Shown piece by piece: positions 39,301 through 42,300 of a stretch of 64,000 nucleotides of DNA (position 1 is the first letter of the stretch; each line of letters opens with the position of its first letter). Position numbers: made by a program. Where the stretch lies: assembly GCF_054482595.1 (NCBI RefSeq), contig NZ_CM137008.1; one strand, 5' to 3'.

Positions 39301-42300
39301 ATATTTGCTAACTTACCCGTGGCGCTGGCTCCGGCAATGGGGCTGAACGCCTTCTTTGCCTTCGTGGTCGTGGGGGCTATGGGGATCTCCTGGCAAACCG
39401 GGATGGGCGCGATATTCTGGGGTGCAATTGGGCTATTTTTGCTCACGCTGTTTCGTATCCGGTACTGGATGATCTCCAACATTCCATTAAGTTTACGTAT
39501 TGGTATCACCAGTGGAATTGGATTATTTATCGCCTTAATGGGATTAAAAAATACTGGCGTTATTGTCGCCAATAAAGACACCCTGGTGATGATTGGCGAT
39601 TTAAGTTCTCACGGTGTGTTGTTAGGTATTTTAGGGTTTTTTATTATAACCGTGTTGTCATCACGTCATTTTCATGCCGCGGTGCTGGTTTCTATTGTGG
39701 TGACGTCTTGCTGTGGATTATTTTTCGGTGATGTTCATTTTAGCGGCGTCTATTCCATTCCGCCTGATATTAGCGGCGTCATTGGTGAAGTAGATTTGAG
39801 CGGCGCGTTAACACTTGAACTCGCCGGTATCATTTTCTCCTTTATGCTGATCAACCTATTTGATTCATCAGGAACATTAATTGGTGTAACTGATAAAGCT
39901 GGCTTAATAGATAGTAACGGTAAATTCCCCAATATGAATAAGGCGCTGTATGTTGATAGCGTCAGTTCGGTGGCGGGTGCGTTTATCGGCACCTCGTCTG
40001 TTACTGCCTATATTGAAAGTACTTCTGGTGTGGCAGTCGGTGGCCGCACGGGGCTGACTGCGGTTGTGGTCGGCGTTATGTTCCTGTTAGTTATGTTCTT
40101 CTCACCGCTGGTGGCGATGGTTCCTCCTTACGCAACCGCCGGAGCGTTAATCTTTGTTGGCGTGCTGATGACTTCGAGCCTGGCGCGCGTTAACTGGGAT
40201 GATTTTACCGAATCAGTGCCCGCATTTATTACCACGGTGATGATGCCCTTTACTTTCTCGATCACCGAAGGGATTGCACTCGGCTTTATGTCGTACTGCA
40301 TCATGAAAGTATGCACCGGGCGCTGGCGCGATCTGAACCTGTGTGTGGTGGTGGTCGCAGCTCTGTTTGCACTGAAGATTATTCTGGTGGATTAGTAACT
40401 GGCGAGGGTTTCCAGATATCATGAGTTCTGATTACGCAGGAGAACTCATGATCTGGATAATGCTCGCCACGCTGGCGGTAGTGTTTGTGGTTGGTTTTCG
40501 GGTGCTGACATCCGGGGCCAGAAAAGCGATTCGCCGTCTCAGCGATCGGCTGAATATCGATGTCGTACCCGTGGAGTCGATGGTCGATCAAATGGGAAAG
40601 TCAGCCGGTGACGAATTTTTACGTTATTTGCATCGTCCGGATGAGTCGCACCTGCAAAACGCCGCGCAGGTGTTGCTCATCTGGCAAATTGTCATTGTCG
40701 ATGGTAGCGAACAGAACCTGCTGCAATGGCATCGGATTTTACAAAAAGCCCGCCTTGCCGCGCCGATTACCGATGCTCAGGTCAGGCTGGCGCTGGGTTT
40801 TCTGCGCGAAACTGAACCTGAAATGCAGGATATTAATGCTTTTCAGATGCGCTATAACGCATTCTTTCAGCCTGCCGAGGGCGTTCACTGGCTGCATTAA
40901 AACCGCTTCGTCTTATCAGCCTACAGACCGTGCCTGACCTGTCGAGTGGATAAGGCGTTCACGCCGCGTCCGGTATCGGAACTGACAGTAGGTGAACGCA
41001 TTATCTACGTTCTATTTACAGCAGCACATCCAGCCCGTGTTTTTGCACAATGCTGAGCAGTTTTAATGAAATGCCATTGGGGCGTTTAGCGCCACTTTCC
41101 CATTTTTGTACAGTTGAAACGCTGGTATTGAGATAGTGAGCGAAGACGGGCTGACTCACTTTTAATTTTTCCCGCAGTGCTTTTATCTCAACAGGTTGTA
41201 GGTCTTGCACGCTGGTCAGGCAGGCTTTGTCAAAAGTACGCATCGTTTCGGCAGAAATAGCATCGACGCTGGACAATCCAGCCGCTGCGCTGTGAATAGC
41301 CTCAAATGCAGGACTTTTAAATTTAGTTTTTGCAGTCATAGCAGATCTCTGTCAGTTCTTTAGTGTTAATCATTGCTGTTAGCTGGGCTTTCGTCAGGAA
41401 GGCATAATGCTTTGCAAGTTCACGAAACCCAGCCAGTTCCTGACTATTGATGTTCGACATATCCTGTTTTGCATATAAAAACGTGTAAAACCAATTGCTT
41501 CCCCCTTTTGCCAGAATAATTGCACGCTCACGATTTTGGTGAAGGCGCTTTTTAAAAACGCCACCACCAAGTGCATCAGCTTTACCTTGCTCCGTTTCTA
41601 AAATGGCCCGGCACAACTCTTCGTCTGTTATTGCATGAGACCTGGCTTCCCTTGCAAACCATTTGGTTTTAAACACGCGCATATCGTTGAGGTCCTGTTA
41701 TTAAAGTATATCACCAAGTGCAATACTTTATCCCTTATTCCCAACCCAATCGCGAAAATGCATATCAGCTTGCCCTATGATTTTTGTTTCTTCGAGCAGC
41801 CTCGAACTTTTCCCACAACACCGTAAAAGTTGCAAAAACGTTAAATGCGTCACACATTTCAATGTTAAAGTGGTCGGCTTTTCCCCTGAAACATGCCACG
41901 GGTAACACCATGAGTGAATTTATTGCCGAAAACCGCGGCGCGGATGCCATCACCCGACCGAACTGGTCAGCCGTTTTCTCGGTGGCGTTTTGTGTCGCCT
42001 GTCTGATTATCGTTGAGTTTTTGCCCGTCAGTTTGTTGACGCCAATGGCCCAGGATTTAGGCATTTCGGAAGGGGTTGCCGGGCAATCGGTGACCGTGAC
42101 CGCCTTTGTGGCAATGTTTGCCAGTTTGTTTATTACCCAGACAATTCAGGCCACTGACCGCCGCTACGTTGTTATTTTATTTGCCGTTTTGCTGACGCTC
42201 TCCTGTTTGCTGGTTTCCTTTGCTAACTCATTCAGTTTGCTTTTAATTGGTCGTGCCTGTCTGGGGCTGGCGCTGGGCGGGTTCTGGGCGATGTCGGCGT

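Follow-up and report, generated by a model that had tools for sequence, protein, structure and literature searches.

Did the Escherichia coli lineages that carry a toxin-antitoxin (TA) pair between yicN and nepI gain it, or did K-12 lose it? The question arises from a 64,000-nucleotide (nt) stretch of E. coli XH990 DNA (NCBI RefSeq assembly GCF_054482595.1, contig NZ_CM137008.1), which we refer to as the window, and from two overlapping minus-strand genes located in it at 41016-41682. The window is 100% identical, with matching coordinates, to the first 64 kb of the XH990 chromosome (NZ_CP019359.1). A first-pass annotation had described these genes as a HigB-2/HigA-2-like type II TA pair inserted between yicN and nepI. 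We consider it highly probable that they constitute an intact chromosomal HigBA-2-type type II TA operon, composed of a PF06296 toxin and an XRE-type helix-turn-helix (HTH) antitoxin, which has long resided in the nepI-yicN gap and has been deleted in K-12. Below we present the evidence on the identity of the two proteins, on their putative regulatory region and on the history of the site, and weigh the alternative explanations along with it.

Identity of the Toxin and the Antitoxin

Both genes were called as open reading frames (ORFs) with ATG start codons on the minus strand and are arranged toxin-first. The toxin gene (41323..41682) encodes a 119-amino acid (aa) protein of the PF06296/HigB-2 family with a RelE fold, and the antitoxin gene (41016..41339) a 107-aa protein (WP_000125642.1). 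The 3' end of the toxin gene overlaps the start of the antitoxin gene by 17 nt (41323..41339, minus strand), with the antitoxin ATG lying within the toxin codons TAT-GAC, which suggests that translation of the toxin and the antitoxin may be coupled. The pair is located between yicN, which is convergent with it and ends at 40900, and nepI, which is divergent from it and starts at 41910. The latter gene encodes a purine-nucleoside exporter. In RefSeq the gene at 41323-41682 is labeled "type II toxin-antitoxin system RelE/ParE family toxin" (WP_001521686.1) and its partner "helix-turn-helix domain-containing protein"; the toxin start is set there at the GTG at 41676 (117 aa) and not at the ATG at 41682 (119 aa). 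We take ATG 41682 to be the true start, because it is accompanied by a conserved ribosome-binding site (ACAGGA, 41693..41698, minus strand, 10 nt upstream of the ATG; the sequence ACAGGAtgt is kept in related loci), a conserved N-terminus, MR(V/I)FKT, and the 119-aa length of the family. Counted from this ATG, Arg2 of the toxin is invariant in the family.

The hidden Markov model (HMM) searches proposed in the first-pass annotation bear out its family label. The toxin matches PF06296 far beyond chance, with an E-value of 9.8e-42, and its residues 1-113 align to the complete model (positions 1-120 of 120). In the antitoxin, HTH_3 is recognized at residues 52-96 (E=1.2e-7). The same PF06296 model is matched by Vibrio cholerae HigB-2 (VcHigB2; sequence from PDB) with E=3.3e-8 at model positions 8-96. 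VcHigB2 has been placed in PF06296 before, and the toxin/antitoxin gene order is the one listed for this family (PMC11980606). When the AlphaFold model of the toxin (predicted local distance difference test score, pLDDT, of 87.5) was compared with PDB using Foldseek, ranks 1-10 were all occupied by VcHigB2 (prob 1.0, template modeling (TM) score 0.51-0.60, ~20% identity), followed by Mycobacterium tuberculosis HigB1, Cami1, YafQ, YoeB and RelE. Of these, HigB1, Cami1, YafQ and YoeB are ribosome-dependent RNases. The active site of VcHigB2 is formed by K49, R51, R64, Y82 and K84. Toxin residues K44, R46, Y70 and K72 align with VcHigB2 active-site residues, and R53 is the probable equivalent of R64 in the modeled structure. 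Among 24 homologs, K44 and K72 are conserved in all, R53 in 23 and R46 in 22. By analogy with its characterized relatives, we regard the toxin as a putative ribosome-dependent mRNA endonuclease of the PF06296/HigB-2 family.

The antitoxin consists of an N-terminal helix (residues ~10-24) and an XRE-type HTH domain (residues ~46-107). Its best match in a phmmer search of PDB is HigA-2 (5jaa/5j9i; E=9e-10, residues 46-102), and HigA2 5j9i is also the best fold match to the model of the C-terminal domain in Foldseek (root-mean-square deviation 0.9-1.4 Å, TM score 0.81-0.85, 40% identity). The N-terminal 45 residues do not align in sequence with HigA2. They include a nearly invariant stretch (residues 14-22; motif FEAIHSAAxGL), and in a fused toxin-linker-antitoxin model built with a paired alignment the N-terminal helix reaches a pLDDT of ~94; we propose that this helix, with its FEAIHSAA motif, is the toxin-binding segment. 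The antitoxin also matches the C-terminal region of Pfam MqsA_antitoxin weakly (E=1.1e-5). Two more specific names were tried and rejected, as both scores fell below the curated cut-offs: NadS (NCBIfam, 41.3 bits against 60) and MqsA (TIGR03830, 41.0 bits against 61.8). No NCBIfam model matches the toxin.

What the first-pass annotation observed is thereby upheld in full. The two overlapping minus-strand ORFs of 119 and 107 aa in toxin-first order were found as described; the toxin is indeed basic, with an isoelectric point of 9.2 and 19 K+R vs 14 D+E residues; the 107-aa protein has its HTH at the C-terminus, as the HTH_3 match at residues 52-96 indicates; and the HigB-2/HigA-2-like label agrees with the Pfam family common to the toxin and VcHigB2, with VcHigB2 taking the top ten folds and with HigA-2 being the best match of the antitoxin. 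Its REP-like neighbor, discussed further below, was also recovered, the exact 20-mer core being present twice in the window vs 0 expected.

Candidate Operator, Promoter and Proposed Mechanism

A scan for homologs, in which each species was represented by one genome, yielded more than 521 loci; the pairing and palindrome counts given here come from the best 80 of them, which belong to Enterobacterales, Beta- and Alphaproteobacteria. An antitoxin homolog lies directly downstream of the toxin in 80/80 loci, and among the Enterobacterales loci the lengths of 119/107 aa and the overlap of 17 nt hardly vary. We found that the palindrome TAGCAC-N3-GTGCTA is present within 100 nt upstream of the toxin gene in 78/79 loci (perfect in 54) and usually ends 25-33 nt before the toxin start. 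Up to two mismatches were allowed, and the same rule applied to 520 kb of flanking DNA gave 0 matches.

In XH990, the repeat search and the family motif point to an inverted repeat at 41702..41730, TAAAGTATTGCAC-ttg-GTGATATACTTTA, as the candidate operator. Positions 41709-41723 form its core, TTGCAC-N3-GTGATA, the E. coli form of the family palindrome, and the E. coli copy has longer outer arms. A putative extended -10 element, TGaTATACT (41705..41713, minus strand), read from the sequence, overlaps the right half of the operator; its family form, TGcTATAGT, is kept across the loci. The mapped operator of V. cholerae HigA2 is likewise a single inverted repeat that spans the -10 element. The only other match to the operator consensus in the window, TAACACAGTGTGCTC at 26045 (26045-26059), has two mismatches and is probably due to chance; it lies ~110 nt from tisB, a type I toxin gene annotated at 25846-25935.

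The proposed mode of action follows that of V. cholerae HigBA2 and Coxiella ToxP/AntitoxP, the relatives for which ribosome-dependent mRNA cleavage has been established by experiment, and only for them. By this analogy, the toxin would enter the ribosomal A site and cleave translating mRNA by means of K44, R46, R53, Y70 and K72, and the N-terminal helix of the antitoxin would wrap around the toxin and neutralize it. The antitoxin dimer, alone or together with the toxin, would bind the palindrome at 41702-41730, and because this palindrome overlaps the extended -10 element, such binding would repress the operon. Under stress, degradation of the antitoxin would set the toxin free. Taken as a whole, the pair is almost certainly a HigBA2-type operon, and one that is predicted to be functional.

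Several results weigh against this assignment. Sequence-only searches missed VcHigB2: neither phmmer with the toxin nor a 24-sequence family profile gave a match in PDB, and hhalign of the toxin with VcHigB2 reached only E=0.013 over 39 columns; the tie between the two toxins therefore comes from the Pfam model and the fold. At the putative active site, position 70 is Y or F in homologs (F in 6/24), and R53 corresponds to VcHigB2 R64 by predicted strand order only, a sequence-only alignment placing N63 there. The candidate DNA-contacting residues of the antitoxin (S75, Q78, K79 and A84) differ from the base-reading residues of VcHigA2 (R68, E71, N72 and R77), for which reason we infer DNA binding rather than transfer it from VcHigA2. 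The E. coli operator core matches the family consensus at 10/12 positions and departs from it at two. A consensus sigma-70 promoter scan, which requires a -35 element, returned nothing, and no good -35 is found at the toxin promoter; consequently, it is the conserved extended -10-like motif that the promoter proposal draws on. The intrinsic terminator scan detected none at the locus. PADLOC has no model matching the toxin and gave only generic HTH matches for the antitoxin. Finally, a literature search for ECs4597/ECs4598, the pair in O157:H7 Sakai, and for yicN with toxin-antitoxin, which did not cover EDL933 Z-numbers, gave nothing relevant, that is, no toxicity, neutralization, RNA-cleavage or DNA-binding study.

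Distribution in E. coli and the K-12 Scar

The module is present in 1716/5426 complete E. coli genomes, always in single copy and on the chromosome; neither a plasmid-borne or second copy nor a partly deleted form was seen in any of the 5426. This polymorphic presence invites the explanation implied by the first-pass annotation, namely that the pair is a mobile addiction module which entered the yicN-nepI gap recently and stabilizes an adjacent virulence-type island. The absence of the pair from K-12, which the annotation had noted, is correct: K-12-type genomes do not have the module, and in TA-negative E. coli the site is ~800 bp shorter. Alignment with JB41 (K-12-like), O157 and Q5 defined the segment missing from K-12-type E. 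coli as 40988..41818, ~830 bp in the window as opposed to a 44-bp scar of unrelated-looking sequence in K-12. Recent insertion is at odds with the edges of this segment, where we detected no target duplications or direct repeats and no integrase, transposase or mobility genes; the difference from K-12 is a replacement and not a clean insertion.

The 44-bp K-12 filler (positions 1177-1220 of the JB41 locus, L002) is flanked by the REP element on one side and by the region upstream of nepI on the other. Read on the toxin strand, it encodes …I-E-T-E-Q-G-K-D, in which GAAACGGAACAGGGCAAA specifies ETEQGK, i.e., toxin residues 29-34, in frame. This stretch is specific to the Escherichia toxin allele. 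The remnant differs from the toxin gene at three nucleotides, all of them synonymous third positions, and an exact peptide match of this length arose in only 7/20,000 shuffles of the filler (p≈3.5e-4). At the nucleotide level, the alignment of the filler with the module is not significant (score 23 vs a shuffle mean of 17.6±2.3, maximum 30), the remnant being significant at the peptide and codon level only. Because the filler encodes ETEQGK with synonymous differences only, we interpret the K-12 gap as a deletion scar, and since three unrelated TA-negative strains share this same scar (loci L002, L085, L086), it points to one old deletion that spread. On the evidence of these sequences, it is K-12 that deleted the module, and the window strain, XH990, did not gain it. 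Comparison of the yicN-nepI gap has thus upheld one part of the first-pass annotation, the lack of the pair in K-12, and overturned another, the insertion, given that the K-12 filler holds a fragment of the toxin gene and that, as described below, the same nepI-yicN site is occupied in Klebsiella, Citrobacter and other Escherichia. The scar also largely refutes the explanation by a recently inserted addiction module.

A separate, larger deletion was found in E. coli Q5 (L004). It extends from inside the REP element into nepI, so that the whole module is gone and nepI is annotated without its N-terminus. This second event suggests that the nepI-yicN gap is prone to deletion.

Age of the Module at the nepI-yicN Site

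We found the pair between nepI and yicN also in Klebsiella pneumoniae, K. oxytoca, K. grimontii, K. indica and Citrobacter amalonaticus, in one further Enterobacteriaceae genome and in two other Escherichia; in K. spallanzanii this placement is partly seen, the locus being cut at the toxin. Across the site-sharing genomes the nepI-toxin intergenic region is collinear (211-227 nt) and aligns, including across the K-12 breakpoint. Between genera the antitoxin-yicN region gives no alignment and is uninformative. When five of these genomes are ranked by how closely their toxin matches that of the window, the order is the one given by nepI identity. Synonymous sites are saturated between genera. 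The shared site, the collinear intergenic region and the saturation of synonymous sites all argue against a recently inserted addiction module.

The neighbor-joining (NJ) tree is less favorable to long residence. The site-sharing pairs stand on long separate branches and form no clean clade, and nested among them is a near-identical group of pairs spanning several Enterobacterales families. This group evidently reflects horizontal transfer elsewhere, as mobility of the module would have it. The tree leaves some room for repeated insertion at a hot spot; it is compatible with old residence and no proof of it. Considered together, the sequence evidence says that the module has occupied the nepI-yicN gap of Enterobacteriaceae for a long time, and that about two thirds of E. 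coli, K-12 included, lost it by one old deletion.

A stronger formulation would be that the pair is an orthologous TA locus, vertically inherited at nepI-yicN since before the split of Escherichia, Citrobacter and Klebsiella, kept by purifying selection together with its own operator, and lost by a single deletion in most E. coli. We put this forward tentatively, at somewhat below even chances. If true, the pair would be an unusually ancient, core-like TA system, kept for a host benefit (stress response, phage defense or nepI-linked regulation) and not through selfish mobility, and the natural isogenic lineages with and without the module could be used for measuring that benefit.

As for mobile elements, distant members of the PF06296 family do occur on 183 plasmids (from rhizobia, Coxiella and others), of which 86 are conjugative, and homologs of Coxiella and Vibrio stabilize plasmids (PMC11980606 among the sources). 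These facts would suit an addiction module; against it stand the lack of any plasmid or second copy in E. coli and the observation that no enterobacterial plasmid carries a close relative of the pair. The plasmid homologs are all below 60% identity, except for one record in the 73% range and one mis-filed chromosome. A 4.9-Mb E. coli record, NZ_CP141089.1, was filed among plasmids, just as a 515-kb Salmonella Infantis whole-genome shotgun contig (AFYI01000003.1) was among phages; this mis-filed Salmonella contig was the only match in the phage collection. A further curiosity is a 1-kb contig of a Collinsella metagenome-assembled genome (L039): its near-complete identity to the K. pneumoniae locus suggests that it was binned there as a contaminant.

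Relation to the Neighboring Island

The island on which an addiction role was predicated is real. Between nepI and yicS (43296-61155) the window carries a non-K-12 region with iatC, eilA and genes for a type III secretion translocon and its chaperone. The product of iatC is a 3608-aa inverse autotransporter with many tandem immunoglobulin-like repeats of ~100 aa, eilA encodes a HilA-family regulator, and the type III families are IpaD/SipD, YopB/SseC and SycD (SycD/LcrH). Beyond the island follow yicS, nlpA, yicL, setC and tRNA-Sec (selC); the distance to selC is a few kb. It is situated on the far side of nepI from the pair. O157:H7 Sakai possesses the pair (ECs4597/ECs4598), with nepI there directly followed by yicS and no island. 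Because the pair occurs in Sakai without the island, module and island are inherited independently, and we find no support for an island-stabilizing role. Weighing this together with the scar, the segment edges and the shared site, we regard a recent, island-stabilizing insertion as very improbable.

Selection, Decay and Possible Host Benefit

The toxin has a ratio of non-synonymous to synonymous substitution rates (dN/dS) of 0.06-0.13 and the antitoxin one of 0.05-0.30, in comparisons within Escherichia as well as between genera. These values indicate that both genes are under purifying selection.

Not every allele appears sound. In O157:H7 strain 3384 (L003) the toxin ATG is replaced by ATA, and the protein carries G61V and L88I in addition; this toxin may be poorly translated or attenuated. 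Outside E. coli, full-length antitoxins are accompanied by truncated toxins in Mixta theicola (L019, 44 aa), Lonsdalea quercina (L033, 63 aa) and Winslowiella iniecta (L051, 80 aa), and in Ca. Pantoea formicae (L036) both genes are truncated. The truncated loci are consistent with decay that begins with the toxin. Erwinia mallotivora has two copies of the module on the same contig, ~13 kb apart (L022, L032), the second with an ATA toxin start like that of O157:H7.

Such alleles, along with the drift of the E. coli operator core at 2/12 positions, could be taken to mean that the module is domesticated or decaying, with a toxin that is non-toxic or barely expressed and an HTH protein kept as a transcription factor, e.g., for the divergent nepI, with which the operon shares a 227-nt intergenic region. 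We find this quite improbable for XH990, whose toxin is full-length and retains the conserved ATG, the ribosome-binding site and all candidate catalytic residues, and the dN/dS of the toxin is as low as that of the antitoxin. Nor does the position of the operator suit a regulator of nepI: it is located at the toxin promoter, ~180 nt from the nepI start, and K-12 keeps the nepI-proximal 91 nt of this region without the regulator.

If the operon is active, as we consider much more plausible, its main benefit to the host could be anti-phage abortive infection. In such a scenario the biochemistry would be the same and the role other than stress response or addiction: phage shut-off of host transcription would deplete the antitoxin. 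That the module was kept for so long at a single chromosomal site, under purifying selection, suggests that it benefits the host, and toxins of the RelE/ParE superfamily have been discussed as defense toxins (PMC11980606). Among proteins encoded by phages, the antitoxin has homologs in phrog_2104 (E=1.9e-26), and the toxin has a weak match in phrog_5869 (E=2.9e-4). An anti-phage role is at the same time rendered unlikely by the PADLOC result (no toxin model, generic HTH matches for the antitoxin), by the lack of defense genes adjacent to the module and by the fact that two thirds of E. coli do without it.

Other Features of the Locus and the Window

The repetitive extragenic palindromic (REP)-like element (40944..40987) lies between the convergent yicN and antitoxin genes and bounds the segment absent from K-12 on its left; according to the alignment with K-12-like JB41, it occupies the same place in K-12. 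Its exact 20-mer core, GCGGCGTGAACGCCTTATCC, is found at 40948-40967 and again at 6118-6137. The REP-derived Rfam family naRNA4 gave a sub-threshold match at 40944-41009 (31 bits vs a gathering score of 59.5); besides it, the Rfam scan returned one spurious miRNA match and nothing else.

A short inverted repeat, TTCGAG…CTCGAA, is located in the nepI-toxin intergenic region at 41790-41806 (minus strand TTCGAGGCTGCTCGAA), within the stretch that was lost in K-12. Akin to it are the motifs GCTGCTCGC, which Klebsiella and Citrobacter have in the corresponding position. Elsewhere in the window, two genes between ilvN and uhpA (28949-30250 and 30858-31961) are annotated as "hypothetical protein"; Sakai likewise has hypothetical genes there (ECs4607-4610).

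Comparison With Known Systems

The locus adds a further HigBA2-type module to the TA systems of E. coli. Work in Vibrio and Coxiella has already established the family together with its fold and the way it is regulated, and current understanding is not overturned by the E. coli locus. What our analysis adds is a corrected toxin start codon, a family-wide candidate operator, TAGCAC-N3-GTGCTA, and the K-12 scar, which turns the question "what did pathogens gain?" into "what did K-12 lose?" The module occurs in O157:H7 and many clinical lineages and not in K-12, so that most laboratory studies of TA systems do not include it.

The closest characterized counterpart by fold is V. cholerae HigB-2/HigA-2 (VCA0468/VCA0469; PDB 5JAA, 5JA8, 5JA9, 5J9I, 8A0X). 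The two systems have in common the PF06296 family, the toxin fold and the antitoxin HTH, the toxin-first order, an antitoxin in which an N-terminal toxin-binding segment (predicted in E. coli) precedes a C-terminal HTH of the XRE type, and an operator that consists of one inverted repeat and overlaps the -10 element (a candidate in E. coli); putative counterparts of the active-site K, R, R, Y and K are present in the E. coli toxin. Yet the toxins are only ~20% identical and show no sequence-level match without the Pfam model. In the E. coli toxin the β2-β3 loop is shorter, and a further helix and strand follow at the C-terminus (residues ~97-115), corresponding to Pfam positions 97-120 and absent in VcHigB2. 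The operators differ as well, being of the TAGCAC-N3-GTGCTA type here and TGTACGC-N5-GCGTACA in V. cholerae, and the Vibrio pair resides in a superintegron, whereas the E. coli pair occupies a fixed core-genome site.

Similarly, ToxP/AntitoxP of the Coxiella burnetii plasmid QpH1 (CBUA0028/CBUA0027) is a HigBA2-type, toxin-first pair, with ~32% identity by tblastn over 94% of the E. coli toxin. In experiments on ToxP, translation was inhibited, the partner neutralized the toxin and it bound the promoter. That pair is plasmid-borne and acts in plasmid maintenance, in contrast to the E. coli module, which is chromosomal and single-copy. In turn, HigB/HigA (YgjN/YgjM) of E. coli K-12, HigBA of Proteus Rts1 and MqsRA resemble the module in their toxin-first order, in a toxin that is a ribosome-dependent or ribosome-enhanced RNase of the RelE superfamily and in an HTH antitoxin. 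However, their toxins belong to other Pfam families, PF09907, PF05015 and PF15723 (PMC11980606), and their antitoxins are fully folded or have a zinc-binding N-domain, without the short N-terminal binding helix that is predicted for the E. coli antitoxin.

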